A stretch of 63,748 bases of DNA, the filler included, from Kipferlia bialata (lineage: Eukaryota): the NCBI GenBank assembly GCA_003568945.1. It is 5 parts of 4 records of this genome, joined end to end, with 100 filler letters (N's around TTAATTAATTAA, not from the genome) between each part and the next. Parts side by side here need not be neighbours in the genome. Positions count along the whole stretch, not along the records: positions 1 to 16,467 come from BDIP01000603.1; positions 16,568 to 33,010 come from BDIP01000605.1; positions 33,111 to 49,549 come from BDIP01000606.1; positions 49,650 to 58,384 come from BDIP01000629.1; 1 more part is not named here. The stretch is one strand, 5' to 3'. Below are positions 152 through 55,231 of the stretch, one piece after another. Numbering within the stretch: position 1 is the first letter of the stretch; every line of letters starts with the position of its first letter. The notes under the pieces are model-generated. The model was not told the origin of the DNA and ran no database searches. It was given only the letters and a program-made list of their open reading frames with translations. The position numbers and the translations under genes are program-made.

Positions 152-3100
152 TTTCCATACTGTCCGGAGACTTGCCCACCAGCACTCTCCTCATCTCCTC
201 TCTCTCCCCCTCTCTCTCACTTTCTCTCTGTCTCTGTCTCTCTGTCTCTCTCACTCCCAGTGGACTCTGGGTTCCTTGCCGTGCCCTATGCATATGCACA
301 GATGGGGTGGGGGGTTTATGTGTACATCAATATTGTCAGATTGTTGGATGCATATATATTCTCCACACACCCTCTCTCTTTCTATTCCATTATGGATAAT
401 ATTGAGTCTTCCCTTCCTCTACCCACCAGGTGGATCCCCGGCTGTCTCTTCTCCTGTCTAGCCTACTTCATACATACTAGTGGGTGCAGACACCTCACAA
501 ATGCAACAAGGGTACGAATCATAGTTGTGGTATATGTATTTACATATACTTGATGGTGTATCCTATATAGATGTGGTATATACTAAATTTGTATACTAGT
601 GGGTGCAGACACCTCACAAATGCAACCAGGGTGAGGGGGTGTAGTCTACCATGTCCATTACTCTGTGTCACCACCTATATCTCATTCATTCCCCTCACCC
701 TCAGTCCATAGGTGCCACTTCCTATGAAGAGGTGGTCAGAGTGGTGGGGGGGAGGGGGTGCTCAAAGCCGATAGGTGCGTGTAACACAGTGTCTGGTCCA
801 ACTCATACTACTATATGTGTCTCTATTCACTTCCGGCCCTCATCATGACCCTTGAGAACTACATGTACTCTCATATACATATATATTGATATGGATACTA
901 CTATTCATATGTGTATCTCTGCACACTAACTCTCCAGCCATCATCATGACCCTTGAGAACTACATGTACCTGGTCACCTTCATCGTGGTGGCTGGGGACT
1001 ATCTGCTGGGGTGGGTGCCACGGCTGACAGTGAAGTCATCCAGGTATGAGTGTGAATTGTGATATTATACATATATGAATATATGTATATATAGATGTAT
1101 TGGTTGGTAGGTGCCACATTGTATACACTATGTATTATATATATAATTGGAAGGCATACAACTCTCTAACAATATACTCACCCCTAGACTCCTAGCCTCC
1201 TGTTTCACCATGCTGCCCCTGTCATTCATACCAGACCTCAGGAGGCTAGGTATGTACAGCTGGATCACTCTTGTACGCTCTCTCCCATAGAGGGAATGTA
1301 TACATAGAGTATATACGACCCTATACATCCTGTTGAACCCCTTCCTCACCCCATGCCCTGTCTCTTTCCTGGCCTTGCTCTCTGCCCTGTGTATCACAAT
1401 GTCGGTGGTGGTGGTGGCTGCTCAGGTGGGTTTGTGATGTTGTCCTAGATCATGTCATGTGTCATGTCATTGTGCCCTTACCTTGCTCACCTCCCCAGAT
1501 AGCAGTAGGTGACACACCTTCCTGCATCCCCCCTCCCCTCTCCCCTGCCACACCAACCTCACTGACACCCATGCCCTGGCCACAGGGTGGGTGATATATT
1601 ATATATACACATATTATATACATATAGTAGATAGTATATATATATATATACTATATATATGTGGTGACTACACTGACACCCATGCCGTGGCCACAGGGTG
1701 GGTGACTATCATGGATATACTGTTTCTATGCTATATACTCAGTGACCTTGCATTATAGTGGAGATGCACTACTGTGACTAGAGTGTCATTCATACTGTGG
1801 CCACAGGGTGAATGATTATCTATTATCTATCCAGATTTCCATTCACATCATACCTCTCACACCAGACGGATGGCTCAGGGGTCTTGGCCAGGGGCTGCCC
1901 TTGTTGGCACTGGCTCTAGGTAGGGAGATGCATCCTGCTGCCATAACCTTCTAGTATATACTGTGTGTACGTGTCTCACCCCCAGGCCCTGAGTTTGCTG
2001 TGTCCTCTCTGTACAACTCTGTCTCTGGCACCCATACCATGAGGGGGAGGACAGTCATGAGGGGGGTCACATGGGGTGGGGGACTAGAGTATATGCATAT
2101 ACACATACTATATATATGCGTATTTATGTATGTCATAGGTCAGACATGAGGGTCACATGGGGTTGGATTCTGTCATACATGCAGTGGCCACCGTCTCACC
2201 CAGGCCTCGCCTTCACTCTTGTTATGGAGCTGTGCTTTGGGGTGGCAGGCAGCGCAGTGTTTGGAACGGAGACAAGGTGTGGATTTAGTAATAATCAATT
2301 CATTCTTCAGTATATGGATGGCCCGACGAAACGCTGACCCTTAGCGATGATCTCCTTCTCAACTTTGTGGATTCCAGTGCACTCACGTCGGTGCTCAAGG
2401 TGGGTGGGTGTTTATAGAGATATGGGGTATATATATATATGTGTATATACCTAAAGACAGTTCCCTAATTCAATTCCCGTGTCTGAATGTATGCCATATA
2501 TATCCTTACCCCCCAGGTTCTGATGGCCCTTGTTGTGACGTGTGCATACCCCCTCATAGACCACTGCTCGAGGGAGGGGGCCATATCACTCATCACATGT
2601 GGGTGGGGTGCCATTCTGTATACATCTCTCTTAGTGCATGTACCATCTCTCTCACCCCAGCCCGCACCTCAGACTTGGCCACCCTGGAGATATGCCTCTC
2701 CCTGTGCCTCTATGTGTGTGCACTGCTGGTGGCCATGGTCACACCGGACATATCGACGGTGCTGGGTATGGTGTATATATACATGTGGTAGTAGTGCATT
2801 CCTCGTGTATATGATCAGATACTGCCTCCCACAGTTGCCATCCTCTTCTATCTGAGTGTCTGTAAGTGTTCCTGCATTACCCGTCTATCCTCTTGACTCT
2901 CAATGTGAGTTTGCATATATAAACATATATATCAGTTTACCTACCCCAAGTATTCTTCTCTGCCACTGTGTTTTTCTTTTGTCTCTCTCTCTAACTCCAG
3001 TCTTCTCCTCTGCCACCTTCGGGTCTGTCCTCTACTTCTACGGACCAGCCCTCGTCGCACTGAGGTACAGCGTGGTATTGATAGGGAATGGTGTCTTCCG

Positions 3101-3497
3101 TATCAGTATTTATACCCACTTACCATATAGGTTCGTAGAGGACCCCCCCTCGGGTGAGAGGGAGGGACTGCTATCAGGTGCCTCCACACCCCTAACCAGT
3201 GGTGTAGACGGTACAGTACTTGGGTGCTACAGTGGCACCGAGACACCCCGGGAGCCCGTCCCATCTATGACCAGTCAGACCCAGCAGGCACTGGTGGATG
3301 GGGTGTGGGTGCAGTGTAGAGAGAGAGAGGGGGAGAGGGAACAGACAGAGGGGGATTATGATGCTGATGCAGTCCACCCTGAGGCGGAGGGTGTGGGGTA
3401 TAGTGTCCGGTGGCACTACAGTCTGTCTGGCATAGTGCTGGTGGGCATGGGTGTACTCAACACTGTGGTGGCACTGGGAGGCGCCATGCAGGGGTAG
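152..3497 (+). CDS. Amino acid transporter (AAAP/Aa_trans, SLC38/36-like), multi-exon, 5' end incomplete
   Basis: Spliced exons give DSGFLAVPYAYAQMGW (the family's G-x-G-x-L-x-x-P-Y-A...GW TM1 motif), SYEEVVRVVGG, YLVTFIVVVAGDYL, MLPLSFIPDLRRLG, FGVAGSAVFG..DDLLLNF, VVTCAYPLI, VAMVTPDISTVLG/FSSATFGSVLYFYGPAL and a terminal TM helix ending at TAG 3497. About 11 hydrophobic segments. Confidence 0.82.
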
Positions 3498-4104
3498 GGG
3501 TGGGGAGTGGCCATCTCTCTTGATGCCTGAGAACGGGACACCTTCTAGGACAGAGTACCTAGGTAGTGCCTACCCACAGCTGATGGCTCAATGACTGTCT
3601 GTTGGTGGATGGTCTTGTCATGCGGTACACTCCCATCACCCGTCACCCATCACGACTGTCTGCAACTGATCAGTCTGATGACCGGTCGTATTCCACAACT
3701 ATGCCATACAAGCAATGAAGACTTCCTGTCTCTGTGACAAGTGAAGCACTATATGAGAGGCCAATTTCGCAGACTCCATACCAAAATGCCCAATGGCTCT
3801 GAGACCAACAGCTACAGCTATAGCTCAGCGTACTGGAGAGAAGCATGATAGAGTTCCCGCTACTGGTCCAGACTCATAGGTGATATCACCATCTGGACAG
3901 TTACCATGTGAAACACCAGAATGGGAGTGAGAGATGCTAGTGTTGATACTTGTGATACACTCTAGGTGCATATATAACTTCCCATGCCATACATCTATTA
4001 CTCAACACATAGATTGTGGGCCTTTCTGCCTCTTTAGCCCCTTTCACCTGGTTACATCTCCCACTAACTCTTCCACTTATGTGTCCTCTCTCTCCCTATC
4101 CTTC

Positions 4105-7100
4105 CTATGCATCGTCTCTTCCTATCCCTGCGAATGTCTGTGCATACTTCATCTGCAGCAGCCTCAGCCGCTTCTTGAAGGTGGGGGTCAGGTAGTCGTC
4201 GGGTGTCCTAGGGTGTGAGAGAGAGAAGTATTCATGGGGTACTTCATGGGATGAATTTCCTCAGTGGCTTTGGTTGCATAGTGACACACATAGTACCACT
4301 CACCACTCATGTGCTTCTAGAGCTATGCCAATGGGTATCTCGTGGGTCAGCAGGCCGAGGGCCTGGTGTGAATGGAGATCGTTGATGGTCTATCGTTGGT
4401 AGTCTATCGTTGATAGTTTATCGTTGATAGTCTATCTTTAATAGTCTATCGTTGATAGATAGATAGATAGATAAATTGTGGTCAAGGTAGGTACTAGGTA
4501 GATCGGTGCATCCCACCTTAGCCCCTTCTGTGATTCTCTCCAGCACCATGTGTGTGACGGTGGGGTCTGTGTATAGAGTGGCCAGGGGAGCAGAGGGGTC
4601 AAGGGGGAGAGAGGAGGCAGAGAGCATGGACCTAGGGTGAATCATACCGCATATATATGTATAGAACATGATATGTGAATAGCAGCTGTACCTCAGTACA
4701 TCCTCATCTGGCACCACCACTGCCACGGGTCTGTCCATGTCACACTCAGAGTGCAGGTAGATCTGGGGGGGAGAGGAAGGGTGGGGCAATAGAGTTCTTC
4801 TTCCACATTCAATGAATATATGTGCATGTGCCACTCTGGGTACTTCGCATATCTCAATCTCTGTGTCTTGTATGCGTAAATATTTATACATGTACCCAGT
4901 TCCTGTACCACTATAGTAATATATACACACATATTAGTTTATATGAAAATATGAATACATGTGTATATTAACACATACATATACTGTACCTGTGCCACTA
5001 TGGGTATGTCCAACAGGGTATCCTCCACCGTCTCCAGATTGAGATACTCCCCATGCACCTGCTTCACAATCCGGCTGGACCTGGGGTCAGGGTCACTGTA
5101 CACTACATACATGTCAGGTATACATGCTTCCTTACTCACCTCCCAATCAGCCGTATCCTCCCCCCTTCCATGATCTCAACCATGTCATCTGTCTTGTACC
5201 AGCCATCCTCAAAGCAGGCGGCAGAGGCAGAAGGGTTCTGGCGGGTGAGGGGGTGTGTTAGGAGAGAGAGAGAGGAGTGTCGGCACAGGGAGGGAGGGGC
5301 CTTGGAGAGTGGCTGATACACTACGTGTCTAGTATAGATTTGTCTATCCCCACCTTGTAATACCCTGTGAACACAGTGGGCCCCCTCAGCTGGAGTTCGC
5401 CCCTGTAGGAGTGAGTAATGATATACCTAGCAGCTGCCTCGATGGCCCCACCATACCCGATACTAGTATCATAGCAAACAGTATTATCATACATATACTA
5501 TAAATGTATATACTATATATATACATATATTCATACCTCGGGTTAGTCCCATCCTGTGGACATGCCTCATACCCCAGGGGTGGGTGGGACACAACTCGTG
5601 CCTCTATGTTGGGGAAAAGGGTGCCAACACCACTAAGGGTTAGGAGGGGTGGATGGGGTGTAGGTGGGTACTGTAGTACAACCCCATAACCTGTAGTCTG
5701 TCTCTCCCTCTGTGGTAACTGACCCCAGGGACCCAGACTCGGTGGACCCATACCCAGCCACCACTCCACAGCACAGGATGCACTGGGGGTAAGAGGCAAA
5801 TGCATATAACAATATATGCATTACATTTTTAAATATTCATATTAATATATATATTATATAATTGTACACACATAAATAGACAGCACAGGATGCACTGGGG
5901 GTGTGGAACATATGTATGTTTACACACACACATATATACATATATACATAGAGAGAGAGAGAGAGGATGGAATATACCTACACGTACCTGCGTGAACCTT
6001 CCCACACTGGGTGTGAGCAGTGCAGCCCCTATTGCTATGTGCTGGAGTCTGCCACCTAGCAAGGCAGACGTCTTGGAGAAGACAAGCCTGACAGGTGAGG
6101 GAGGAGAGGGACATCGGAAGAGCAAATACATATACCAGTATCAAATACAGCGGGACACTTTCGTTTATATACACATACATGGCTCATGCCCACCTGTCCC
6201 AGAGCCAGTCCCTCCCCCTGCCCTTGTCCGTCCCCACCCCATGGGTCTGCATGCCTTTGAGCTTACGAGAGAGGGCCAGGTTGAAGACGGCCTGGGGGTT
6301 AGGAGGTGGAGAGGAGAGAGTATACAGGTATAACTGTCAACTGTAGGTTCCCCCACCTTCCCGATCCCTCCCTTCCCCTCCACCCCCTTTACCACTGCGG
6401 TATGGAGTCTGTTGGCTATCATTGGGACCATTCCCATCACCTGGGGGGTCAGGCAGGGATAGGCATATACAGTGTATATAGATATATACTATATGAGATA
6501 CAGGTGTCATGGGCACCACGCCCATCACTTATTGGGTGAGGTATAGATGTATACAGTGTACTATATCCATGTATGGTGTGAATATGCATAGGAGCCGGAG
6601 ATTTGTTCCAACAGGATACAGAGAGTATGTACCGTGGGTCTCAATGCCTGACAGTCCTCGGCCATCCTCTCCAGAGAGCCGGAGAAGTAGCCAATGCTGA
6701 GGGTGAGTACAATGAGTGGGTATGTACATATATATATATATATTGTTACAAATGTATAATATAAATATTGATGTTCCTGTAACCATTCATCAGTATGAGA
6801 ATACATACTCTCAGACACATGCACATGCACATCTATATGTGCCCGCATACCTGTACCCGTTCATGAGTGCTGTGATCTCCCCTGCATGGGAGAAGACATG
6901 GCTGGGGAGTGAGGGGAGAGACAGCATAGTATCTAACGTATATATGGTATACATACTATATATCAGTGAAACACAAAGGCATCTCTATGTACAATATATA
7001 TGGAGACATGGGTCACTCACGCTGTGGGCAGGTAGCTGTACAGGATCTGCCGAGAGGCTAGGGATGGATCACTCCTGGGGTGGGAAGGAGGGATTGCACA

Positions 7101-8150
7101 GGTATCACTATTAATATGTGATAGTGTCAGTACACCCACCACATATCCGCCTTTGTGGGTGTAACATGCGACATGCCCCTCTGAATGCCAACCTTTATAG
7201 CTACCCATACATATAGTAGTCACCCACTTGAGATCTGCCCCTGTGGGTGTGTATGGCATTGCCCCCATGAATGCAGCACTAGTGATGAGGAAGGTGCGGT
7301 GGGACTGGACAACACCTGGGGTGAGAGGGGGAGGTTAAGTGATGCTATAGCAGCATATACTCCATCCGCATATACTCTGGTCTCCCAGTTGTGCCTGAAC
7401 TGTAGAATATGGAGAGAGATGACTACTTATATACTACTTTGTACTATACATATATTGCTATCATACCCTTTGGCCTCCCCGTGGTGCCTGATGTGTAGAA
7501 TATGGCACAGGGGTCAGAGGGGGAGACAGACGCATCCTGGGGTGGGTGTCAGAGTATGCACCCTGTGTGTACAACCAATATCTCTATCTCGTGGATACAT
7601 ATTTTGCATATAGAGATGTATGCATGTCCATGTTGTAAAAAAGTATATCCATAGATACGGCACCTCTGGCACTGCCTTATAGACCATAGCACTCTGCAGT
7701 GTGTCCAGGTCAGTGAGCAGTATGGGCGAGGCAGGGGCAGAGGACAGGGCACATCCATCCTGATGGTGAGAAAGGGGACATACACATGAATGTCTATGTA
7801 CACATATGCCCCACCTCATACCCCTGAGTCTGCACCACCCTGTACCCTTCTCCACCCTCCCCCCCTGTCTCTCTCTCTGTGTCCACCACTGTGTCTGTGC
7901 CTATGTCCTCGGCTGGGTCACTGGGTACATACAGAGTAGATGCCTCATCCAGCACAGACTGCCGGTCAAAGGGCTGGAGGGAGACAAGACCACGCCTGGG
8001 GGTGAGGAGAGAGGAGAGCCATAATACCTGTCCAGGCAATAGACAAAGGTGTGTATATACACGTACACTCTTGGGCACAGGTGGAGTGCCCCCAGCAGCC
8101 TGGGCAGGTACTTGGCATCACACACGACAAGGGAGGCACATGGGTGAGGG

Positions 8151-8181
<31 letters not shown>

Positions 8182-8664
8182 GATAACCTAGAGGTACATA
8201 CCTGAGTGGTTGAGGACGTATCTCACCCTGTCAGGGCCTAGGTTACTATGGGTGAGAGGAGGAGGAGGGAGACCCACAGAATGTTACTAGACTAGTATTA
8301 TGGTCTCTCTGTACCTGTACAGAGGGACTATGTACACCTATATATATGTATATATGTATACCTGTACAGAGGCACTGTGATGGCCCCCCTGAGCTTGATG
8401 GCAAGGTCGGTCTCAGTCCACCTGGCATTGGATAGAGAGAAATACATATTTATTAGATCTATCAGTTTCAGCCCACCTGGGGGTGAGAGACAGAGAGAAA
8501 AGAAAGAGAGATAGAGAGAGAGAGAGAGGCACATGACACAAGACTGAGACAGGTGAGTATCAGAGAGGTGAGCTGAACTTGGGGTGATAGATACAGTACC
8601 TTGGCTTGTTGACTGCATACAGAGCCACCCTATCCCCCTTGGTCACACCCAACTGGAGGAGGAC
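4105..8664 (-). CDS. Long-chain fatty acyl-CoA synthetase-like protein (AMP-binding family), divergent; 5' exons not resolved
   Basis: Exons read LGVTKGDRVALYAVNKPRWTETDLAIKLRGAITVPLY, VRYVLNHS, LYSYLP, IGYFSGSLERMAEDCQALRPT, LLGGRLQHIAIGAA, VAGYGSTES, GELQLRGPTVFTGYYK, FEDGWYKTDD, IVKQVHGEYLNLETVE, and LTPTFKKRL...KYAQ to a stop at 4105. Confidence 0.88.
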
Positions 8665-8702
8665 CTGAGGGGAGAGGGGGGGGGGGGGGGGGGGGGAGGG
8701 GG

Positions 8703-8741
<39 letters not shown>

Positions 8742-9309
8742 GGGACTATTCTCCACATCTATAGACATAAGTAATACAACCCTGACCTCAGAAAATACAA
8801 ACACAATTATGTGCACGCATATATATATGAGGCGAGTATATGTATGCCAGGAGAGAGAGAGAGAGTTCATTCTCACTCAGTGAGATGGGGTAGAGTTAGA
8901 GACTGTGGGAAAGGGGGGGGGGGGACGGAAGGCTGACTGACAGACAAGAATCATGTTGCCGATATTCATGAATATAAACTAACTAATCCTATGAGAAATG
9001 GAAGTGAGATGAGGTTACAGCAGAGACAGGTACTATTTGGTCTTTTGGTACGATTATCGTTGGAACTACAGCCAGGACAACCTTACTCTAAGTTATATAT
9101 ACACTATGCACCTTAGGTAGCCTTGGCTGTGTTCTTGCAGCGCAATATTGTGTTGTCAGCTGAGTGAGAGAGACTGTCGTTGTCGAAGGTCAGATTCACA
9201 CATTTATCGTATGAAACGCGTCTTCGAGAGTTGAACTGTGTGTCATATTAATATAATGACATTAGATCTAGGAATTATTTGAGTAGTTCTGGTCGCCCTT
9301 CTTGTGTGT

Positions 9310-10460
9310 CTAGCATGTGTACCCTCAGGGACCCGAGCGACCCATCTCCCTGCATCCAACACTGCAAACAGGGCTTAGAGTCTTCGCCAGAGCGTGTCGT
9401 GGATGTTGCTCCACACCTATCTCCAAAGAGAAGGTCCTAGTCGCATGGGTTTGGATACCACATCCCGGATATAGTAGCAAACACACACACATCACCGCTG
9501 AACCCCACGCTCTTGCTCACTATGTAGCGCCCAACTGCAACCATAGCATACCCGCGCGCACAGGCAGGTATACTGGCCTCACACAACCACTCTGGTGTGT
9601 TGCCAGGGGTGTAGGAGTACAGACTCATGCCAAACGCCAGATACACCGTCGATCCAATGGTCGCACAGTGGTCCACTCTCCTAGAGTCAGCGCGTGACTT
9701 TGTTTTAAGGCATGTCGGGAAGGGAAGTTGTGTCCACTCTCGTATAGGGCGAGAAGCGACGCAGTGTGTGCTCGCTACTGTAGCTATCCCTCAGTACCAC
9801 CACATAGAGACACCCTCCAAGGGAGAAGTTGTAGACATTCCCTGGGAAGATATGGAACCGTGCCCAGTCAGGAGTGTCCCTTTTGGTACATCCGCTGTGC
9901 ATGGTCCATGAGTCTACACAGTCCCAGGGATCCAGTGTGCCCCCGACATAGTGGTAGAGGCAGTACACACACCCGCTGATCTGTGCGTAGAAGTAGCCTG
10001 TGTCGCCGAGGGGATAGGGTTAGAGAAGGCTTCAAGAGTAGATATTGTAATATAACATATACATATGTAGACACCCACTGGGTGACACCAGACACTTACC
10101 GCGAATGTACTATCAAAGTGATCTGGGTTAGGTATATCAGCCGCTGGTAGTGGTACTGGGTGGAAGGTACAGGCCTCGGAACAGACACTGGCACACCCAC
10201 GGATAGTGATGACAGGTAGTGTCAAAATACACAGTCTGTTATGAGCAGCGTCGCAGACAAGTACCTGGAAATGAATATACCACACTTCATGACGTGGTAT
10301 ATCATATATCATATACAATAGACTATTGTATTAGAGCGCTTTATTCCTACCTCAGTTGGAGTGAGGTATATGAGGCTATGAAGTGTACTTCCCCGACGGC
10401 TAAGAATGGCAGTGTTGGCACTGGAGAAGTGGACAACCGAAAGGAGAGACTGTATGTGAG
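9310..10460 (-). pseudogene. Kelch-like beta-propeller protein fragment, probably disrupted
   Basis: Kelch-like blades LYHYVGG...W, NFSLGGCLYVV, ATIGSTVYLAFG, MVAVGRYIV...VFATISGMW lie in different frames (ORFs 9705-9968 and 9437-9676), separated by stops with no room for a normal-size intron. Confidence 0.4.
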
Positions 10461-11329
10461 AGTAAGAGGGTGATACAAACACATGTGGATGTGTTTCACT
10501 TTGGTGTAGGTAATTGTCAAGTACCCTTACCGTGGATATGCATGTCCTGGAGTGATTAGACACCTTGTCCTGCCGACCACCGTAGTACCAAGCCTACCCT
10601 CTAGAGTGGCACCCTAGCTGTAGTCACACCCTCCGTCTCGGTCTCGTCAGTAGTGTATACCTCACTCTCACTCTCGGGCCTCTTTCCCTCACTCATATTA
10701 ACGCCAGCGCTCAGTATCACGATTTCTCTCCAAGTTTCTCTATCTCTTCTATGGTTGTGCCTTCAGAATGGTCTTCTTGTCTCTAGGGGTTTCCCTTGTA
10801 CCAGTGTGAAGAGAAACCTCACATATGGACACAACAATGACCGTGAGTCTCTCTGTTTGAGAATGGTAGTATTTAATAGATACACGCAAGCATCTCCAAT
10901 TATAACAATGCGGTTCATGGTTTCCCATATTACAAACACTGCCGAATGCTTTGGCCTAAAAGGGTTAACTCTCTCGGTAACCTCCAGCATCATCATCCTC
11001 CTTGACCCTATATAATAGATTATCCCCTGGATCTTCAGCACATGGTCACAAAGAACAGTGCGAGGCTGAAACTAAGATTGCCTGGTTTTCTCACTCCATT
11101 ATATATCTGATCACCCATTTGCTGCTTCTGCAGTATGGCTGGGAGGGTGCACTAAAAGCAATGCCTGTTAGACTGTCAATGGTACTACTCTGCCATCCAA
11201 TTATTCCTACTATATCCGAATTTACGCTCCCACACGCTACTTCGGTATCTGCTGGGGTAATCACTAGGCTCTTTCCCAAGCATAGGTCCTCACCACCACT
11301 CGCCATTAACCACTATGTACGCCTTCGGT

Positions 11330-13261
11330 TCACTGTCCTGCCGGCATGATTTTGTGTGCGTGCAATGCCTGCGCCCATATGTAGGGGTCCCCCTCTACCA
11401 GCATGTACCACACCCTGCTAGGTGTCACTACCATCAGACATGGCATGTCACGGGATGCAGGAGATGCATCACTTATGGCTATGTGGGTGATCTCTGAGAG
11501 GCGGAGACTCCCCTTGGAGCGCGCCGCTTCCTCGCTAGCATACCACCTCATCTGTGGGTCTCCGTTGCTGATGGTTACCCACTGTCTCTTCCATCCCCTG
11601 AGGAACCCTCTCTCAGTTACCAGCCACCCGCTGTGGTACCCTGGGTAGGGGGGCAGGGGGTGCTCAGCATTGAAGTACGGGGCGTTGGGGTCGAAAGGAG
11701 TGAAGGTCAGGAGGGAGAGGTCTACACCACCAGTGGAAGCTCTGGTCATCACAGCCTGTCTAGCCCCCACCAGTTGCTTTGCTATCGCCCTCTCACTCTC
11801 TGCCTTCTCACGGTCTATCTTCCGCCTGGCAGCAGCGGCCCCGACCATTCTGAACAGGTTGTGCACCCCCACTCCCTTCTTGGCGGACACCTCAGCGAAG
11901 TATGCTGAGTGGTGCACTGCCAGAGCACACCCCTGCATGTACGAGACCCGTCTGTGGTCTGAGAGGTCGGTCTTGTTGCCCACAATGGCGACAAATGAGT
12001 CAGGAGCAAGAGTAGCCACTCGCTCTAGGTGCTCTGCCACATTATCAAATGACCCTCTGTTGGTGATGTCGTACATGACAATGATGATATCACTGTTACT
12101 CAGGTAGGAGTCTGTCAATGAATAGTAGCGAGGCAACGACGCTGTGTCAACGATGGCGAAACTGACAATGCAGCCAGCAGTACCGTACTGTTCACACTTG
12201 CTGTCATAGTCCACCCCAATGGTGGCACCCCTGTGCGCACATGACGATGTCCAAGGTGTGTCCTTGACGTATCTGTGCATGACAGAAGACTTGCCACACA
12301 CATCACCCACGAGGCACACCTGGAGCCTCATGTCAAACCTCATACCACTCCGGGTACGGAGGTCCTTTCCCCACTGTGTTGTGTCCTCTAGTGACACTGC
12401 CATCTCCTGCAGAGACCTCTGCATCCTAGCATGGGACTCCATTATGCGTGCCGCTCTCTCTGCGGCTGTCTCTGGTGCCGCAAGGGACGCCATCTTAGCT
12501 GCACACTCACTGGCTGCATTGTTGAGTACTATCTCACATGCAGTGTGGTCACCACTCTCCATGCCCTCTAGACTGGACATGAGTGTGTGGAGGGCCACCC
12601 CCACCACACCCCAACCCCCATCCTCCACATACAGTGGAGGCACTCGGTAGCTGTCGGGTAGGCTGCCGCTGATGGACCTGAGTGTGCGCTGAAGGTCAAC
12701 AAATGCAGCAATGGCGTCCTTGCATGTCATGATGCGAGTGGGGAGAGGCATCTCTCCGTACTGGCATAGGAAGGCATGTGTCTGGTGTACCCAGTTGAGG
12801 TATGCGGCGAGGGTGGGACGGACATTGGGGCTCAAGTGCTGGGTCAGAGTCTCCAACGTGTGGCGAAGGGCACGATTCTAAATGTGAGAGTGTGGGATAT
12901 GACAACCGTCAGTAATACAATACAGCGGGTATTTACAGCATATATAGGCGGAAAACAAAGAAATACGTATAATATAACACTGATACTTGTCAATGTGGGG
13001 TCTACAGCTACATGTCAATGTCAACTTGTCAATCCTTGTCAGGCATTGTCACTGTACTGATACCCATAGACATGCATATAATCCACACAATGGCCCCAAT
13101 ACACTATGTATACTAGTGATATATATAGTGTAACACGAATGTATCACCTGCTGCACCAGAAGGCCGCACATGGGATCAGGACCCTGCCCTGTGCAGATGT
13201 CACTGATGTTCATGTCACTGACAGTGTGGGTGGCACAGATGATCTGCTTGAGGTCACGCAT
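11330..13261 (-). CDS. Rab-like small GTPase domain fused to a C-terminal PH domain, with an N-terminal helical region (~553 aa, two exons)
   Basis: Exon 1 13261-13148 (38 codons, CAG|gtgata) splices in phase 0 to the acceptor ctcacatttag| at 12877. The long exon contains LVGDVCGKSS, ATIGVDY, DTAS, YDITNRGSF, VGNKTD, EVSAK, then the PH domain HSGWLVTERGFLRGWKRQWV...KGSLRL...VVTPSRVWYM...WAQAL. Confidence 0.87.
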
Positions 13262-13502
13262 GTCTGGGGAGGTCTGTCCAGTCAGAGGTAGAGTGTACCG
13301 GTGAACTTAGTAGCTCTAAGTGAGTGACTGGAACAGATGTCAACGTTAAGGAGAGTGACTGAACCCTTTTCTGTTTTTGGCTACACGCTTTGTCTTGTCA
13401 TCCAACCCCGACCTCTTGTCAAGACCAGCACTGCATGTCATTGACCAGTCATGACGTGTAGGGCCCCATCCCACCCTCTTCTCTCCATCCTGATACCGCA
13501 GC
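13262..13502. promoter_or_regulatory. Short divergent (bidirectional) intergenic region
   Basis: 241 bp between the predicted ATG of the GTPase-PH gene (minus strand) and the ATG of the 7-TM gene (plus strand). Confidence 0.5.
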
Positions 13503-16416: not shown

Positions 16417-16467
<51 letters not shown>

Positions 16468-16567
16468 NNNNNNNNNNNNNNNNNNNNNNNNNNNNNNNNN
16501 NNNNNNNNNNNTTAATTAATTAANNNNNNNNNNNNNNNNNNNNNNNNNNNNNNNNNNNNNNNNNNNN
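16468..16567. other. Artificial contig join (100-nt N spacer with TTAATTAATTAA six-frame stop linker)
   Basis: N run containing ttaattaattaa at 16512-16523, preceded by a poly-C tract. Confidence 0.95.
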
Positions 16568-36396: not shown

Positions 36397-36553
36397 GAGT
36401 TGGAAACAGACACAGAAGCTGTGGTTCTGAGTACTGTTAGTTTCGACCAGTAGTGTATTGGTAACTCTGAATAGACACTGTGTATAATTGAGAAATTTGC
36501 AGGATAAGAACGTTACCAACAACGATTTGATTCTATTGGACACCAGTCTCCCT

Positions 36554-42500: not shown

Positions 42501-42753
42501 CATCCTCTGAGTCTGAGTCAAACACCATAGACCCACTCAGGGCCTCGGGGGCAGCGGAGGGAGCCCCGCCCCCTATATTGTCCAACACCAGCACCACAGT
42601 CCCCCCCCGGCATATCACAATGACATGGCCCTTGGAGGGTATGACACGCGTGATGGGGGCCAGGCTGTGCGGGGTCAGAGGCTGCAGCAGCTCATGGCCG
42701 CGCAGGATCGTCAGGTCCAGGTCCTCTAATGTAGTCGACGTGTCCACATACAT
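36554..42753 (-). CDS. Large multi-exon hypothetical protein (beta-strand-rich N-terminal part, helical C-terminal part, ERER low-complexity inserts)
   Basis: Long GC-rich open exons (ORFs 42319-42753, 40789-41382, 37335-38723, 36554-37204) linked by canonical GT-AG introns. No family motif recognised. Confidence 0.68.
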
Positions 42754-42933
42754 CGCTGTGGAGTGTCACTGACCACAGAGAGAGTACACGTTGTCCGCAG
42801 TGGCCTAGTGTGAGGAGACACCCAATACGTCTCTCTCTCTCGATGTTTTTGATTATCTATGAGCAATAGGGGTTCGTCTTCCCATTATCGATGAATCGAC
42901 CTCAACCTAGGCCTTTCTAGGTGTCTCAAGAGG

Positions 42934-43425
42934 ATGGAGTTTTGTGAGCACTGGTGAGAGCAATCCTGCGTACTACTCTACTCATGAATACCCTCCTGAG
43001 TGAATGTGGTGTGCGTTCCTAGCTGGAGTATCAGTTTACAGAGTTCCAATCCTTTTTGTGACTCTGTTTCTTACCTAAGCAACAACCTCCTGCTCCCAGA
43101 CATCAAGAGTGATGAGCCTGAGAACTGGGTGTACAAGTGCAGGGTTTGTGGGCACACTGTGCCTGTGGAGGACTCCACAGTGACCACTCACAGGCTCATG
43201 GAGCCTGAGGGCGACACAGACGCTGGTCTGCGGGAAAAGCTTGTGCAGGGTATTGTGTCGTGTCCCTACTACACGCGGCACAAGTCTGTGTGCAAGAACT
43301 GCTCGTTCCACACCATGGTGCTGTTCCAGGACAAGTGGGGCAGGTACGCAGAGGCCATGCGGTTCCTCGACGTCTGTCCGAGGTGCAGCAACGTGCAGCA
43401 CGTCGATGTGGAGACAGGCGAGTGA
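42934..43425 (+). CDS. RPB9: DNA-directed RNA polymerase II subunit RPB9 (two zinc ribbons), two exons
   Basis: Exon 1 ATG 42934 (MEFCEH-tg|gtgag), intron 42954-43079, then CNNLLLP...YKCRVC...CKNC...VLFQ...RYAEAMRFLDVCPRC. It lacks the RSADEP acidic hairpin of RPA12/RPC11 and has the RPB9-type AMR motif. Confidence 0.85.
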
Positions 43426-43996
43426 GCGGGCGTCCCCTTGCCCTCTTCCAGCCCCCCTCCCTTTTGTATTTGGGTGTTTAGCGTATTTTGTGTGCTGGGG
43501 TGAGATGTGTGTTTCCAATCCAGGAGGGAGATCCTCTTTTGGGTTTGCACTGCATATACACGTATGTGTGTGCACGTGCCATTCGTTATGGGAGCACGCT
43601 GCGTTCTGACTCAGCTGTGACTGTGCCTATGTGTGGATGTTGGGTGGTGACACCCAGTGTATTGTTGTGGAGGAGGTCTTTGTATATATATTGTCTACTG
43701 GCACCACCTGCAAGTAAATTACCACACGTTAGTCTACTAGAGTTTGTGTGTTTGCCTGTTCGATTCGTCGGTGTCTAAAGCATCTAAAACATGATGGCAT
43801 GATGTATATATGTGTTTGTACATTGGGGTCTGGGCCAATACCCAAGATCGGTCTGGCTTCTCTTTCACTCCATAGTCGGACACTCTCCTGACACAACCTC
43901 TCTTCACCACTCCCGAGTCCTAGTCACTGTGGACAAGGCAGTGCACTACGAGACATAGCGTGCCTAGTGACGGAGCAGCACTGTAGCTGAGTGTGA

Positions 43997-44455
43997 ATGG
44001 ACGGGTCAGTGCGAGAGACCCCCAGTGAGGGTGTGGGGGGTGAGGGTGCTGGCAGGGTGGCCAGGATGGCCCAGGCCTTCGAGGAGAGGATGGGTGCAGA
44101 GGCAGATGCCATAGGGGCAGAGGCACCAACCACTGCAGAGACTGATAGCAATGACACTGAGGGAACTGAGGGAACTGAGGGTAGTGAGGTCTCAGAGTCC
44201 TCTAGCGACAGTGACAGTGAGGATGATACATCTGTGCACATCTCTGCCTGGTTCGACCAGCACTCTGTGCTAGAGTTCGACCTGGATGCCACGGACAAGG
44301 TGGGTACTGATCATACACTGATATTTATTCTGATAGTACATGCCTTTTGTCCTATAGTCACACCAGGTCCAGGAGGCTGTGTCCCGTGCGTACAGTGAGT
44401 ATGGGGACCTGCGTGGCACTGCTTCTGACCTCGTGCCATACCTTCGGTACGATAT

Positions 44456-44490: not shown

Positions 44491-47400
44491 ACCCCCCCCT
44501 CCCCCCCTCCCCTTCCCCACATAATTTCATCACATTCTTACTCAGTTCTTCTTTGGTGTCGGGCTCTAATATTTTATCCTCACGTATGTATGTCAATATG
44601 TGGTTGTTCTGTACCATTTTGTTCAGACTCATATGTTGTATGTAGATTGTGCTTTAGTTTATATTATATTTCTGTATTCTTACACAGTATCCAGAGAGTT
44701 CAGGCTTGCCAAGGGGAAAGCACACCAAGAAACGCGGAGAGAGAAAGAGAGAGAGAGAGCCTTGGGGGTGGTCTAGCCTGTATCAGTAGTATTGTGGCTG
44801 GTCCTCCAGTGGATAGTGACAGGGATGGGGAGAGAGGGAGAGAGAGGGAGAGAGAGAAGAGGAACAACGAGGGAGAGGGGGAGAGAGAGAGGGAGATTCA
44901 GAAGGACACGGAGACAGAGAGAAAGGTAGATTCAGGGAGACATACATATATTATGGATGAACTACTGAATTATACACTGAGTGGAATACCTATATGTACT
45001 ATGTGTCTTCTGTTCTTTCTCTGTATTAAATATTAATCTCAGGACTTACCTCGTTTGACACAGAGGATACGGGATATGAAGCTAATGCAGTTCCTTCAGG
45101 AAGCATCAAACAAAGTGACAGTATGGTGAGAAATATGTATCTATGTCTACTATATATATATATATATATATATTCTCTACTATATGATTATAGTATATAT
45201 AAAATGTGTACAAAGGTGTACGGGTACTGAATATATATATATATATATATGTGTATGTAATTACCTATTTCTCATTCAGTAATACTATGATTACCTGGTC
45301 TGGAAAGACTTATGGTTCTCATTAATCATATATATATATATAGTATACTACTATATTATACTATACAATATGCAATGGTTCTGAATATTCATGTATATAT
45401 GATAATTTATGCCCTGACTCTGGGCGCATTGTGTATGTATATGTATATACAATATATATGTATGTATATGTATATACAATATATATGTATGTATATGTAT
45501 ATAGAATATATATGTATGTATATGTATATACAACATAGCGAATCGCTATTCGCGATACCCACTCTGTTTTTAGTCGATCCATATATATATACATAGTATA
45601 ACCCGCAGTCTGCTCTGCCGTGACAGATTCTCTCTCTCTCTCTCTCTCTCCTACCCCCAGTCTGCTATGCTTTTAGTCATTCCATATGTATTTCTTCATA
45701 TATAGTATATATAGTATATATAGTATATATATTATATATGTCCCCCAGTCTGGATAGCCATGACCACTCTCTCTTTCTCTCTCTCTCTCTCTCTTACCCC
45801 CAGTCTGCTATGCTGGTCACATGGGGTGCACAACATCTCAGACTTCTATGCATCTGTCGACACACCAGCACCTGAGGAACCAGGGTTGTTCTTCTCAAGG
45901 TATTTTCCTCAGTTTTGCATGGATGATGATTGTTTAAGATTGTTTCTTAAATTCCTGCGTATTTACACATTCGACTCTCTCTACGGTATATTTAGTGAAG
46001 AGTCTACTATGTATAATTGAAACCTAGTATTAATCCTAATTGTCAGGGCTTGGCTGAGAGACACCTTGACTCTCTTCCGTGGTCTCCTCTCGTCTGGCAC
46101 CGTTGTCGACTGCACCCCTAATATATCTGACTGCACCCCTAATACATCTGGCACTAGAGTCGATTCCCCTAGTGAGCAGCACATGGATCAGTTCGTGGAG
46201 TCACGTCTACACTCAATCATTGGACCCTTTACAGCAAAGGTGAGTGACTACTCTCTCTCTCCCCCTCTCTCTTCCTCTCTCTCGCTCCCTCTCACTGTAA
46301 GGTAGAAGAGTACTCTCGCTCGCAGCCACAGTGTTTAAGGCGACTGAGGCGCTATATCAGGCGTCTCTGCTGGGCTAGTGTATCGGTGTATGGCAGGAGC
46401 GGCAACACTCCTCCAACGCCTCGTGAGATACAGGTGAGAGTCTCTTTCCTCTTCTATCTCAGTATGATCTCTCCCCTACACCCACATTTCAGGTTGCAAG
46501 AGAGTGGGAGATGAAGCATCTTCACATTGTGATGGATATGGTCTTAAAGAGAGACCGAAAGAGAACCAAGAGGAAGAAGAGAGGTATGCTAAATTACAAC
46601 CTCACATTGGCACTCTTTATGGGTCCATATTTGTGGTAGTGTGACCTCTCCATTCGCTATGTAGGTCCTCAAGATGTGTTTCAGTTTCCTGGTCTTTACC
46701 TACTTTCCAACAATTATATATATATATATAGATAGATATATGATTATATACTATATATATATATTGAAGATAGGTGTCAGTATCTGCAAAATACAGATGA
46801 AACTTCTTAGTACTATGTATACTACCGCCCCCTACTAGTGTCCGTTGGTGTATGTCTCACATTCAGTTCGTCATATGTAGTTATAGTATATATTCATTTG
46901 ACATATAGTATCTGAGACCTGGCTCTAACCCATTCGAGCTATATCTACATGTATTGTGATATATTACTTCCATTACCTTCTCTGAGTATACTTCTCTTCT
47001 CACTATCCTTTACCCTAGGCAAGACTGATGACGGCAGGACGTATGAGGATGACGTTGTGGACTTCTTCAGCTGGGCAAAGGTTCGTTGTCGTGGTTATGT
47101 TAATGCATTAGTATCACATAGGTCCAGTGTGCTGTAACGAAGTAGTTCTCTCTGAAGGACGAACAACGATGATGTATACAACTCATGTGGTGAAATTGTA
47201 ACTATATTTTGTATGCATGATGGTTTTGAAGTGTCATTATATAATATGACAATATATATATACATTACTAGTCATTGCATGATACAAGACTCCGTAGTCT
47301 CATCGTTCTCTCTTTCTATCATATCATTGATCTTTCACATCTCGTCTCTCTCTCTACGTCTCTCACTATCTAACGCCAGATCCACCCTGACTCACTTGAG

Positions 47401-49549: not shown

Positions 49550-49649
49550 NNNNNNNNNNNNNNNNNNNNNNNNNNNNNNNNNNNNNNNNNNNNTTAATTA
49601 ATTAANNNNNNNNNNNNNNNNNNNNNNNNNNNNNNNNNNNNNNNNNNNN
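49550..49649. other. Artificial contig join (100-nt N spacer with TTAATTAATTAA linker)
   Basis: N run with linker at 49594-49605, followed by poly-G. Confidence 0.95.
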
Positions 49650-50147: not shown

Positions 50148-53100
50148 CTACATGTTGGCTATGTATGCCAGCGGGTCAAACTCGACCTCCTCACCTGGGG
50201 GTCAGTGGCAGTGTAGATACACATGGTGATATGAAGAGTAATAGGTAGAGTATGTGTAGATATATCAACGTACCGTCCCCCTCTGCCAGGGCCAGTGGGT
50301 CCATGCACATATATTGTAACACATAAATGTTGTATGGTAAGAGTATACATATATAATATATACATATGAGTATACATATACACACTATACTCACCGTCCC
50401 CCTCTGCCAGTGCCAGTGGGTCCAGTACCAGTATTAGATACTGAGCACAGTACACATATTAGAGTATATATATATATATATATATACATATACACACTAT
50501 ACGTACCGTATCCCTCTGCCAGGGCCAGTGGGTCCATATACACATAGTGTAGCATATACTATATATACAATATAGTATATATATCCACTCTATATACATA
50601 CCATCTCCCTCTGCCAGTGCGAGTGGGTCCATGGCCACACCCTGTCCCATGTCATCGGAGGACTCAGAGAAGGAGGACCCATCGCTAGACCCCTCCCCCT
50701 CCCCCTCACCCTCTACATCCACCCCGGCCAGGGGGTCAGACACCAGGGGGACAGGGGCAGAAGGGGTAGATGCCTTGTCCTGTGGCACTACAAGGTCAGC
50801 TATAGAGACAGGCTCAGCTGCAGGAACGGGAGCCTCTACCTCAGCCTCAGCAGGTGGTACCTCCTCTGCCTCTGCCTCTGCCTCTACCCCTCCATCTGCC
50901 TCTGCCTTGGGTGCAGTACCCAGGAGGTCTCCGAGCAGATCAAGCACCTTGTCCTCTCTCTGGTGCTCTCTCTCCCTCTCCACCTGTGTCTCCACCTCTG
51001 CCTCTCTCTCTCTCTCCCTCTCTGGGTAGGAGGGTATGGGTGCACCAAGAGGGTTGAACTCCTCAGCCTCAACCTCCTCAGACTCCTCTCTCAGTCTCTC
51101 TCTCTCCCTCTCAGCCTCCAACTCGGCCTGTCTCTCTCTCTCAGCCTCAGCTAGTCTCTTTCTCTCCCTCTCCTTCTCGGCCAACCGCAACACCTCCTCT
51201 CTCTCCTTCTCGAGCTGGGCCTGCCTCTCTCTCTCCCTCTCAGCCTCTGCCTCTGCCTGTCTCACAGCATCCTCGGCCACCTGTCTCACTCTCTCCTCCT
51301 CGGCCTCTTGCTCTGCCTGTCTCTGGGCCTCTCTCTCCCTCTCTGCCTCAAGGGCCCTAAGTGCCTGTGCCACTCTCTCTGCCTCTATCCTAGCAGACAC
51401 CTGTCTATCCTTCTCCCTCTGCATCTCAGTGTCCATCTGCTTAAGCCTCTCAGTCAGGGCCTCTCTCTCCACACCCCACTCCCTCTCCCTCTCCTCAGCC
51501 TGCTGTTTGTGCACTGCATCCCTCTCCTCCAGCTGCTGGATCCTGGGATCAGTATATGTATATGTATGAATATTTCTTATCCAAGTGTCACTCCGTTGGA
51601 CTCTGATGTCACTTCGTTCTCCAGAGATCTTTACAATAAGTACAAAGGTACATACTCCAAAATATTCTCACTCTATATATATGTGTGCGTACCTCGCCAT
51701 GAGCTCCTGTGTCTGTGCATGTACATACATACATATATAGTATACAAATATATATATATATATATAATGGTATAGCATACCTCGCCATCAGCTCCTGTGT
51801 CTGTTCGTCTCCTCCCTGGGTCAGGGTCTGCTGGAGGGCAGTCACCTGGGTAAGAGAGTAAGAGGGTAGAACCACAGGTAGCATAGAAGCATATGCAGAT
51901 GTACTGTCATATCCCCACCTGTGTCTGCAGCTCCTCCTTGTCAGCCAGAGCCTTCTTGACCTGGGAGGGTTAGATATGTGGTATTTACACGCTAGTCCTA
52001 TTAATAACACTACCAATGGTACTATTACTGATACACGCTGTACCTGCCTATCCTTCTGTGCCAGTGACCCCTTGAGCTCATTCACCACCCTCTTCAGCTT
52101 AAGTAAGGCAGTCTTATAGGCATCAACGTTGGCACCCTGCTTGGAGGGGGCAGAGGGGGCAGAGGGGGTGGGGGCAGTCTCTGCCAGCTTGGCTTCTCTC
52201 TCTCTCTCCCTCTCCCTGTGTGCCAGTGTCTCCTCTCTCTCTCTCCTGTACTCCCCCTCCTCCCTCTCCCTCTCCTCCCTCAGCCCCTTCAGTCTCTCTG
52301 CTGCCTCCCCGACCTCTGTCACTACACCACCCAGGGTGGACAGGGTGCTCTGGGTCTGGTCAACTGCCTCAGTCACATGGGTGGTACTCTCCACAAGGGT
52401 GTGGACGGCACTGGCTGTGGAGGTAAGGCCCTCACCGGCCTGGGGGGTCAGAGGGTAGAGGATATGAAGACATGTATATGCATCCACGTATATACTCTAT
52501 ATACATACATACTCCCAACCTGTACCATGTCTCTGAGTATATGTAAGAAATGTATACACAGTTATTCAAGCATCCATCTCTATATGTGAATATATACCAT
52601 TGATACTATATGTATATGTATATCCCACCTGTGCCATCTCTCTGAGTGTCTGTAGGAGCTGTGCCAGGGGGCCTGCCATGGCTACTAGCTCAGTGGCCTA
52701 TGGAGTTAGATACCAACTGCTATGCCACGGTTGTTAGTATTATGACACAACTGATACATATACTGACACTGATACAGCCATAACTACTAGCTCAGTGGCC
52801 TGTGGAGTTAGTCTCAAGATGGGGAGAGTAATCCTTATGACATCACTGACACTGACATTGATACACTGTTACTAATACATCCATGGATACTAGCTCAGTG
52901 GCCTGGGGTGAGAGAGAGATGGGGCCCTAGTATGCACGACTCTCTCTCTCTCTCTCAATACTGCTCAATACTATACATCAGCTATCTGTACCTGCTGCAC
53001 GGCCCCCCCCATGTCAGGCACCACCACTGGGGGTCTGGGTCTCTGCCTCCTGACCCACTTCTCGACCCTCACACTGCACATGCAGCCACACCTACATAGT

Positions 53101-55231
53101 GAGTGGTGGGTATTTGTGTAAACATATCCGAGAGGTGAATATACAAAAATGCAAATCGTTGGTAAAGCAAAAATAATATTGCGTATACACTCAATATACC
53201 TAGGGAGAGTGAGACCAGACGGGTCATCCCCCAGGAGTATGGGTGACACCATGTCTAAGGGTACAAAGGCTGTGACCACTAGGCCTGACCCTGAGACAGA
53301 CACGCCCTCGCAGGAGGAGAGGAGTCTGCGCACCAGGGACTCAGAGCCAGAGGCATCGGGGGGGGCCTGTATGTAAGTGGATGTTGAGAGGGAGAGAGAG
53401 AGAGAGAGAGAGGGAGACCACCTGAGTTGCCACGTCCGATGAATAGACACAAACACACACACATACACACACACACATATATATATATATACCTGTGCTG
53501 CCACGTCTGTGAGTGTCAGCCTCTGCTGCATTACAGGGGGTACAGACATAGGGGCATAGGGGGTGGGAGGGGGGAGGGGGGCAGACCCGTCCCCACCCTC
53601 TGCACCCTGCTGTGTCTGTGTCTGTGTCTGCATGAGTGTGTATATGCTGTGACACACAGATGGGTCATACACACTCAGGGTGCACACCGCATCCACAGTC
53701 ACATCCCCAGACGTGTCACACTTGAACACACCGCCTGGGGGTTAGGGGCATTAGTATGTATGTACATACATATATGTCTCTGTATAATGGTTGTCGTTTG
53801 TGGTATGTACTTGCTCCTCCGTTCCCTGTGACTGACCATACAATGTACATGTATACTCAAAACTATGTACACACATGTACCTGTCCCCCCGTTGCCTGTG
53901 ACTGACACGACATGCTCTGTGTCATAGGGGGAGGGGTGGGCAGAGTCCTCGGCCTGGTGTAAGATATTGTACCACAATATAGACTATACAATCGTGTATA
54001 TAGATAGTCCACACCAGTAAACATTGACATATATATATATAGGGGTGGGGAGAGTCCTCGGCCAAGTGTAAGTTACACTACACATACAATACAGTGAATA
54101 TATACATTCATACATATAGGTGGGTAGAGTCCTCGGCCTCGTATAAGGGGATATATATATTAACAGCAGGGGTGAGGACTATCGATGGTGAGTGTTATCT
54201 ACCTGTGCCGCCTTGATTGCCCTGTCTATATTCACACACTCATATATATATATATCTATATATAAAAATATACACTTTACTTCTACTGTCCTATCTACAC
54301 TCTACCTGCGCCGCCTTGATTGCCCTGTCTATCTCGTGCACTGCCTGATTATATATCTATCTACATATATTGACATCACCATCAAGTATATATCTCTCTA
54401 TATACACATTCTATTACATATCATCTACCTGAGCCGCCTTGATTGCCCTGTCTATCTCGTGCACTGTCTGTACATCTGGGGCAGTGACTAGCCACACAGA
54501 CTTGCCCTCCTGAGGATCAACAGAACGCATTAGCTGCAATTTACATATACGCACATATATATGTATACAATATCACAAAACCCCCCATACCTTGATGACC
54601 ATTGTGCCATCCCCCCCCACTCCTGTGGTGACAGACTCGGCACTCACACCCAGGCCCTTGATGGCCTTCTGGCCCTGGGGGGTGAGAGAGAGAGAGAGTA
54701 AGAGAGAGATAGAGTGAGAGAGACATAATCTCAGAAGCTGTGAGAGACTGATGACCTTCTGGCCCTGGGGGTGAGAGAGTATGGACAGAGAGAGAGAGAG
54801 AGAAGATATCATATATTGTAATCACCCAGGCCCTTGATGGTCTTCTGGCCCTGGGGGTGAGAGAGAGTAAGAGAGAGGGAGAGAGACACTTTCTCAGAAG
54901 CTCTGAGAGACTGATGGCCTTCTGGCCCTGGGTGAGGCAGAGCATAGGGAAGAGAGGATACATATATATTGTCCTCGATGGTAAGAGAGAGAGAGAGAGT
55001 CAGAGAGAGGTGGAGAGGGAGAGAGAGTAAGAGAGAGTAAGAGAGACAGACAGTATCTCAGAAGCTGTAATAGCGTGATGGATACTATAAATCATGGCGC
55101 ATACCTTGGCTGGACCACTCTCCAGCTTCATGGACAGAGAGTGTCTGGCGGTGAGAGGGGGGAGAGTGAGGGAAGAGAGGGCTGATAGTCATAGTCAGGG
55201 TGGGGGGGGGGGGGGGGGGGGGGGGGGAGGA

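Follow-up and report, generated by a model that had tools for sequence, protein, structure and literature searches.

The window analysed here, 63,748 nucleotides from the free-living fornicate Kipferlia bialata, a species for which 124,912 introns have been reported (PMC5874029), consists of five separate stretches joined by runs of N and therefore samples five loci. The joins (16468-16567, 33011-33110, 49550-49649 and 58385-58484) contain a 12-nt stop-codon linker, and genes cannot be read across them. Judging from their translations, we take the intron-dense genes of the window to include an acyl-CoA-synthetase-like, an LRR, a cathepsin-like, a kelch-like and a membrane-protein gene; an RPB9-like gene was identified by its domain (PF02150), and its second exon gives 107 residues that fully (100%) match a database protein assigned to K. 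bialata. In many introns, a short segment spanning the exon-intron junction recurs as a direct repeat inside the intron. We call these copies echoes.

A self-trained gene parse, in which presumed echoes were masked beforehand, yielded 129 curated introns; doubtful exons, the 3' part of the kelch-like gene and the last stretch were left out of this set. A parse without masking was discarded, because echoes were taken for exons or micro-exons. In practice, then, echoes mislead gene predictors, as they did our own parser. The polarity of real junction versus echo was checked against RNA in the LRR gene; because presumed echoes were masked prior to parsing, it rests elsewhere on open reading frames, and splice-site use in 33400-44440 was likewise deduced from reading frames. 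Read and contig evidence spans 19250-27200 and comes from two runs: X1, a DNA run that is possibly the source of the window assembly, and X2, a run that we presumed to be RNA by guess and used since its contig has GT..AG joints.

The introns are of the GT-AG type and have a branch motif fused to the acceptor, with the branch A 7-9 nt from the intron end in 69 of 90 echo-free introns. Echo-free introns are about 100 nt long (99.5 nt) and 61% AT. Internal exons have a median length of 78 nt, and 7% are 44 nt or shorter. The intron of the RPB9-like gene lies at 42954-43079 and measures 126 nt, the length given in an earlier note on this DNA.

Junction echoes and the anatomy of the repeat unit

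The echoes are real and, as far as tested, not an assembly artefact. A seed-and-extend scan of the window returned 115 repeat pairs. After filtering for complexity and GC content, 108 direct-repeat pairs were found at distances of 40-450 nt, whereas three equally wide control bands had 0, 2 and 0; a second detector found 99 pairs at 45-170 nt and one pair in each of its two controls. These 99 pairs can be grouped into 62 loci. A splice junction is touched by 53 of them, compared with 43% expected by chance (five of the junctions were added by hand from uncurated exons). The nine loci away from junctions comprise three that by eye are junction echoes, one that possibly is, three short-unit minisatellites and two coding repeats. 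Within introns alone, 15,945 nt contained only three matches, two being junction echoes and the third a minisatellite. Simulation with 600 implants, of which 454 were detected, predicts about 81 if intronic copies diverge only 1.6 times faster. Duplications confined to introns are thus nearly missing, with at most one seen.

In the curated introns, an echo was accepted above a score attained by 0.9% of 5,842 unrelated comparisons. Initially 40 of the 129 introns were flagged; three of 72 matches were then dropped as low-complexity or not anchored at the junction. The final set holds 39 introns with echoes (30%), in 48 families (26 donor, 22 acceptor) with 69 copies. Matches lay on the correct side of the junction in 46 of 218 comparisons and on the wrong side in 5 of 218, while reverse-complement matches numbered 2 of 258. 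About eight further families, with a short exon part or from uncurated exons, are given among the features below and stand outside these counts. Echo units make up about 6.1 of the 22.8 kb of intron in the window, and their load is uneven between genes: it is highest in the LRR gene (11 of 14 introns), whereas other genes have echoes in 1 of 17 and 0 of 6 introns (chi-square, p = 6e-5). That echoes occur in most genes, as had been claimed, is thus a fair description, but per intron the share is 30% and very unequal. Every group of echoes listed in the earlier note carries the repeat described there, within a few bases of its position.

Assembly error was examined with a 3,904-nt X1 contig (depth 447), which corresponds to 19250-23085 without a single difference or gap and crosses 13 echoes. 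For these 13 the suspicion of a short-read artefact was not borne out, with the limit that the contig is independent of the assembler and not of the sample, because the window may itself derive from X1. Contigs break at the echo with 42 identical nucleotides (24531), which is therefore not bridged.

Copies are regularly spaced. The distance between them has a median of 99 nt (standard deviation 14 nt for 44 of 48 families), and intron length increases with copy number by 106 ± 6 nt per copy (r = 0.84). Growth in quanta was therefore upheld, at about 100 nt each; the proposed period of about 110 bp gave way to a mode of about 100 nt (quartiles of the step, 86-109). The shared block consists of a median 24 nt of exon (range 12-44) and a median 5 nt of intron, is 92% identical overall and has a median length of 32 nt in all. 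Its intronic part is near the chance level of 3-4 nt; in young donor echoes identity starts at about 0.95 and has dropped almost to background 4-8 nt away from the junction. None of the 48 families has an exon part longer than 45 nt, against 19.9 expected for uniformly placed tandem duplications.

The remainder of the unit, which we call the spacer, has a median length of 74 nt and is 72% AT, compared with 63% for the inner intron and 61% for echo-free introns. In 32 of 41 pairs the spacer exceeded the inner intron in AT content (p = 3e-5), and spacers were also AT-richer than position-matched intron ends (0.73 versus 0.64; 0.67 versus 0.60). The inner remainder has the length of a normal intron (104 versus 99.5 nt, p = 0.51). 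Spacers could be compared with their would-be source in the 44 of 48 families in which they were long enough. Against composition-matched controls, alignment of the spacer with its source was found for 2 of 35 single echoes (1 of 22 among the young ones) and for 3 of 9 arrays, and the mean rank of spacer similarity in single echoes was unremarkable (p = 0.50). An excess seen at an early stage (mean z = 1.0) disappeared for single echoes once matched controls were used. Altogether, five to eight of the 44 families retain intronic homology, and about five are clear whole-unit duplicates. Spacer similarity is independent of echo age (rho = -0.10). Within the window the spacers form no sequence family, their best cross-locus matches being TA runs only, and no reverse-strand similarity was found. 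A comparison of fixed total unit length with fixed filler length gave an intermediate slope (0.5-0.7 ± 0.3).

The earlier note had offered two mechanisms, junction-spanning tandem duplication and insertion with a long target-site duplication. The latter describes the product well. Plain tandem duplication finds no support as the principal route, because the intronic three-quarters of the unit is usually no copy of the adjacent intron, even where the exon part is 95-100% identical. Nor do introns simply decay faster than exons, since donor echo 22309 shares 23 of 24 intron nucleotides with the used donor of its intron (22114-22678) while its exon part is 25% diverged. Marks resembling slippage also occur, namely a deletion at a short repeat (23373) and restarted partial copies (19176, 29536).

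Splicing and the state of echo sites

A 1,385-nt RNA-like X2 contig of the LRR gene contains nine GT..AG joints, and a tenth boundary was obtained from its pieces. All ten introns are joined from the first donor to the last acceptor, as far as a contig can tell, since contigs drop minor isoforms. These introns hold 15 counted echoes, 12 of which have an intact GT or AG, and all 12 are skipped. The decoy arrays proposed in the earlier note are thus ignored by the main transcript; no alternative or recursive use was seen in this one contig, which is blind to minor isoforms. Donor echo 22213 is in frame, free of stops and scores above the used donor, yet it is skipped, so decay of the nonsense-mediated type cannot explain its absence. 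All five intact acceptor echoes in the RNA-checked introns would add a stop. Exon definition, unlike intron definition, predicts the choice of the first donor and the last acceptor around a good inner pair of normal size. The use of outer sites may accordingly reflect exon definition, and for acceptors nonsense-mediated decay (NMD) may contribute as well. According to PMC6679479, U1 proteins are almost missing in metamonads, and no small nuclear RNA candidates were found in K. bialata; its supplement marks SF1, U2AF35 and Prp40 as undetected in this species.

The splice dinucleotide is kept in 56 of the 69 copies and lost in 13, against 10.9 expected (p = 0.51). This is a neutral rate, and the excess loss of GT or AG for which the earlier note had suggested looking is absent. 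If used, 48 of the 53 intact echo sites would cause a frameshift or a stop; the other five, at 22213, 25061, 33871, 54764 and 56651, are in frame and free of stops. Acceptor scores were 4.5 for echoes, 6.0 for real sites and -7.3 for random AGs, so that echo sites look natural. Used acceptors with an echo were weaker than other acceptors (3.9 versus 6.1, p = 0.012); for donors the corresponding p was 0.076. Mismatches between echo and exon comprised 35 synonymous and 46 non-synonymous changes (pN/pS 0.46), a synonymous share of 0.43; if the echo evolves neutrally and the exon next to it is under selection, 0.41 is expected. Young echoes had 10 synonymous and 20 non-synonymous differences, whereas in older ones 25 of 51 were synonymous. 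A signature of intron birth was looked for and not found (p = 0.68 and 0.89).

Echo coordinates along the five stretches

On the plus strand of the first stretch (1-16467), a donor echo of exon 430-511 occupies 593-632 within intron 512-704 (38 nt of exon plus GT, offset 119). The acceptor echo of exon 938-1043 lies at 832-868 (offset 101) and has GG in place of AG, which confirms the CCAG>CCGG change reported at 833. A donor echo at 1671-1705 (offset 111) is accompanied by an older second copy ending at about 1820 (together 1671-1820). On the minus strand, the acyl-CoA-synthetase-like gene has an acceptor echo at 5880-5902 (offset 112), an old donor echo at 7369-7412 (offset 93) and weaker echoes at 8312-8332, 6528 and 4825. 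Two plus-strand acceptor echoes with a short exon part, 14301-14331 (offset 64) and 14859-14890 (offset 38), fall below the exon-only threshold and stand outside the 48 families.

Three further observations concern this stretch and others. Two candidate GT-AT introns, 1250-1354 (+) and 8201-8140 (-), both begin GTATGTAC and terminate in a perfect branch-fused motif, after which AT takes the place of AG; their removal gives a sensible transporter-like and acyl-CoA-synthetase-like protein, respectively, and there is no obvious AG alternative nearby. At 11330-12877 (-), among intron-dense genes, lies a long, apparently intron-free open reading frame without echoes, presumably encoding a small-GTPase domain followed by a PH-like domain. 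Short-unit minisatellites that have no relation to the junction echoes occur in introns or spacers at 4378-4458 (14-nt unit), 27741-27839 (23 nt), 31996-32066 (16 nt) and 45432-45537 (27 nt).

The LRR gene (17014-23283, +) consists mostly of exons of exactly 84 nt, each encoding one 28-residue repeat. The acceptor of its exon 17014-17097 is echoed at 16902-16949 (offset 105), outside the curated introns. Intron 17333-17703 has an acceptor echo at 17598, and intron 17754-18389 has donor echoes at 17856, 17965 and 18172, the first two of which form a true whole-unit tandem repeat. The 746-nt intron 18474-19219 holds a donor echo at 18573 with an alignable intron part, and up to seven copies at its one acceptor, with an N gap (18989-19023) inside the array. 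Six RNA-checked introns of 284, 341, 342, 151, 265 and 305 nt follow in 19304-21354; all use their outer sites, and echoes lie at 19418, 19781, 19930, 20334 and 20861. The 591-nt intron 21439-22029, whose boundaries come from pieces of the RNA-like contig, contains donor echoes at 21518, 21639 and 21729 and an acceptor echo at 21935. Besides 22213 and 22309, the 565-nt intron 22114-22678 has a donor echo at 22459 and an acceptor echo at 22573. Intron 22763-23199 carries a donor echo at 22862 and acceptor echoes at 23075 and, older, at about 23020 and 22980, and intron 23284-23660 a donor echo at 23373 with the internal deletion mentioned above.

Within the cathepsin-like gene (24394-25629, -), the donor echo at 24531-24572 is identical at 42 of 42 positions, with an unrelated spacer; acceptor echoes lie at 25038-25066 and 25447-25470, and another donor echo at 25187-25213. 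Across 24156-27200, RNA-like contigs match this gene partially and have unlike loose ends, which suggests paralogues. The kelch-like gene (28497-29850, +) has acceptor echoes at 28497, 29495 and 29735 and four donor echoes at 28819, 28935, 29040 and 29183; a frameshift suspected in this gene was dismissed, as the frame is open. Two plus-strand acceptor arrays follow outside the curated introns: 30758, 30888 and 31010 before the acceptor at 31118, with alignable spacers, and 31405 and 31526 before 31637 (span to 31676).

In the third stretch, the membrane-protein gene (33772-36283, +) has donor echoes at 33832, 34683, 35153, 35927 and 36264 and acceptor echoes at 35226 (30 of 30 identical) and 35723. 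The latter (35723-35755) is identical at 33 of 33 positions, begins exactly at the exon start and has no AG. Its preceding bases bear a loose likeness to the end of the exon before, which would be expected from a spliced-RNA template; this is a single case and possibly chance. A long minus-strand gene contains an acceptor echo at 37326-37359, old donor echoes at 39460 and 39522 and a donor echo at 40728-40744. An acceptor echo with a short exon part lies at 45629-45671 (+, offset 143). Further echoes, on the minus strand of the fourth stretch, were found in the 407-nt intron 50195-50601 (donor echoes 50506, 50394 and 50273) and in 51543-53880 (donor echoes 51692, 52519 and 53810; acceptor echoes 52799 and 52902). 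Intron 54428-53954 has donor echoes at 54305 and 54202 and acceptor echoes at 54062 and 54137; intron 55104-54675 has acceptor echoes at 54764, 54850 and 54927, and intron 55515-55325 has one at 55428. The short donor echo at 56588-56690 (offset 39) is the sole echo of a gene with 17 introns.

Origin, known systems and significance

We give an even chance to the explanation that echo units are scars of error-prone, template-switching repair of breaks at or near the junction, with selection keeping the products in which splicing uses the outer sites. The data show the anatomy, the bias towards junctions and, in one gene, the use of outer sites; we infer that there was a break, which enzyme acted, in what order things happened and that selection filtered the products. 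A DNA break at or near a splice junction would be extended from one end by a template-switching polymerase, the best candidate being alternative end joining (alt-EJ) of the polymerase theta type. The polymerase would copy the GC-rich exon end and splice signal faithfully and then lose register in the AT-rich intron; after about 100 nt of synthesis in total, the end would be rejoined. As the unit would usually land beside the exon, the inner echo would be the old splice site and the outer site the new one. The resulting direct repeats may provoke repetition at the same junction, in part as exact duplications of the unit. Selection would retain correctly spliced products in which the copy is shorter than a normal exon, and the spliceosome would either take the splice site closest to the exon, meaning the first donor and the last acceptor, or leave wrong products to nonsense-mediated decay. 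Metamonads are reported to lack nonhomologous end joining (NHEJ), and Supplementary Data 2 of PMC8516963 lists PolQ, five Rad52 entries and no Ku70 for K. bialata. AT-rich flanks yield more alt-EJ insertions (PMC7407515).

Several observations weigh against this break-repair explanation. Significant intronic homology, as plain duplication would yield, is kept in 5 of 44 families, and acceptor echoes show residual diagonal identity (0.39 versus 0.29, p = 3e-8). Spacers are not enriched in snap-back palindromes (z = -0.2), and the known insertions made by polymerase theta are mostly far shorter than 100 nt. In only 5 of 10 arrays does the farthest copy show the greatest divergence, and the donor at 22114 shares its intron start with the second echo rather than the nearest one, which speaks against a simple polarity in which the outer site is new. 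Paired comparison of the innermost echo with the used site revealed no significant difference in strength (p = 0.22 and 0.30). The direction of events is itself deduced, because no ancestral, pre-event allele or relative was found: 335 metagenome candidates gave two weak matches (44-48% over about 33 residues). PARP is not among the entries for K. bialata in the supplement of PMC8516963. Finally, break repair alone does not account for breaks sitting at junctions.

Another candidate is a process guided by splicing or RNA that acts directly on the junction: R-loops or splicing intermediates would mark the exon end, or a staggered cut of the retroelement type, followed by reverse transcription, would place AT-rich RNA between the copies of a long target duplication. 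The duplicate has one end fixed a few nucleotides from the junction (median 5 nt shared), intron-only events are missing, rates differ strongly between genes, several acceptor echoes start near the branch A, and five Rad52 entries are listed for the species (PMC8516963). We nevertheless consider it unlikely: apart from TA runs the spacers share no family, the consensus would give the same shared acceptor length, no echo clearly runs into the next exon as a spliced template would, and some units keep 20-60 nt of intron. Alternatively, ordinary tandem duplications of about 100 nt may arise anywhere, those that span a junction with a short exon part surviving and their intronic parts diverging fast by slippage. 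Polarity and a normal inner intron would then follow automatically; the arrays at 17740, 30818 and 55297 are whole-unit repeats, spacers are alignable at 18573, 52799, 29495 and 50506, and acceptors retain the diagonal identity just described. However, echoes identical over 23-37 exon nucleotides have unalignable spacers, the spacer and the inner copy differ in composition, and the inner splice signals are undecayed. The tight spacing (44 of 48 families), the missing intron-only duplicates and the lack of correlation between similarity and age also make this explanation unlikely.

Capture of a divergent allele, in which repair would copy the exon end together with about 75 nt of a different intron from the homologous chromosome, is very unlikely. 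Both copies often have natural but different splice signals, and half of the differences in older echoes are synonymous (25 of 51), as it would predict; the mostly non-synonymous differences of young echoes (20 of 30) argue against capture of a functional allele, the spacers are AT-richer than position-matched intron ends, and alleles with identical exons should have alignable introns. A short-read assembly artefact or library chimeras might be suspected from the N gap in one array, from a spacing near short-read length and from the possible origin of the window in X1. The long X1 contig that matches without difference or gap, copies that have diverged with a substitution pattern of real evolution, and unique spacers render this extremely improbable.

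Among known systems, the 37-bp variable number tandem repeat (VNTR) in intron 7 of human F7 is similar in that its repeat spans the junction and creates identical donors downstream, and splicing uses the donor farthest upstream (PMC1557585). As described there, it is a single locus, a head-to-tail minisatellite and confined to a donor, whereas in Kipferlia 30% of introns are affected, at donors and acceptors, by units of about 100 nt with mostly unique spacers. The echo unit likewise spans the junction and the outer site is used (ten introns), but head-to-tail copies of the whole unit are a minority. Intron gain by tandem duplication or double-strand-break repair, for example in Daphnia (PMC3443670), shares the duplication at or near splice sites and direct repeats read as scars of staggered-break repair; the cases presented there are new introns with short flanking repeats, whereas in Kipferlia existing introns are lengthened and the repeat comprises 12-44 nt of exon. 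Templated insertions by alt-EJ or synthesis-dependent microhomology-mediated end joining (SD-MMEJ), and the partial tandem duplications of rice (PMC7407515), combine local duplication with filler from error-prone end joining, although they are not described there as tied to splice junctions or as a quantum of about 100 nt across many introns. Local duplication, filler and slippage marks are all present in echo units. Introner elements (PMC9860276) insert with a target duplication able to supply a splice site, but they form sequence families, make duplications of 3-9 bp and create new introns; Kipferlia is not mentioned in the main text of that paper. In the window we found no spacer family, duplications of median 32 nt and no signature of intron birth. 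The echo units behave like an alt-EJ scar and depart from the VNTR in whole-unit copying and from Introners in family structure. No description of this junction-echo architecture was found in the literature searched, which did not extend to subscription papers, and the string 'duplicat' does not occur in the main text of the K. bialata genome paper (PMC5874029). It is apparently a real and undescribed variant of junction duplication at unusual density.

A bolder proposal, possible but doubtful, is that a junction-targeted mutation process guided by splicing or nascent RNA rewrites intron ends. The exon end would be duplicated, a flank of about 75 nt and a new splice site would be written and the old site buried as a decoy, and tens of thousands of introns would have been inflated genome-wide. 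The cell would tolerate this because its reduced spliceosome (U1 proteins, SF1 and U2AF35 undetected) would still work by exon definition and select the outermost sites, which are often the weaker ones.

Should the window be representative, a major part of the 124,912 introns of this species would carry a dated scar of repair at the junction, and thousands of pairs of splice sites, the inner original and the outer new, would compete in an identical exon context. Exon versus intron definition would thereby become directly testable in a short-intron protist for which U1 proteins are reported to be nearly absent. Echoes would further record, in countable form, end joining in a lineage that lacks NHEJ, and they would represent a mechanism by which introns grow without transposons.

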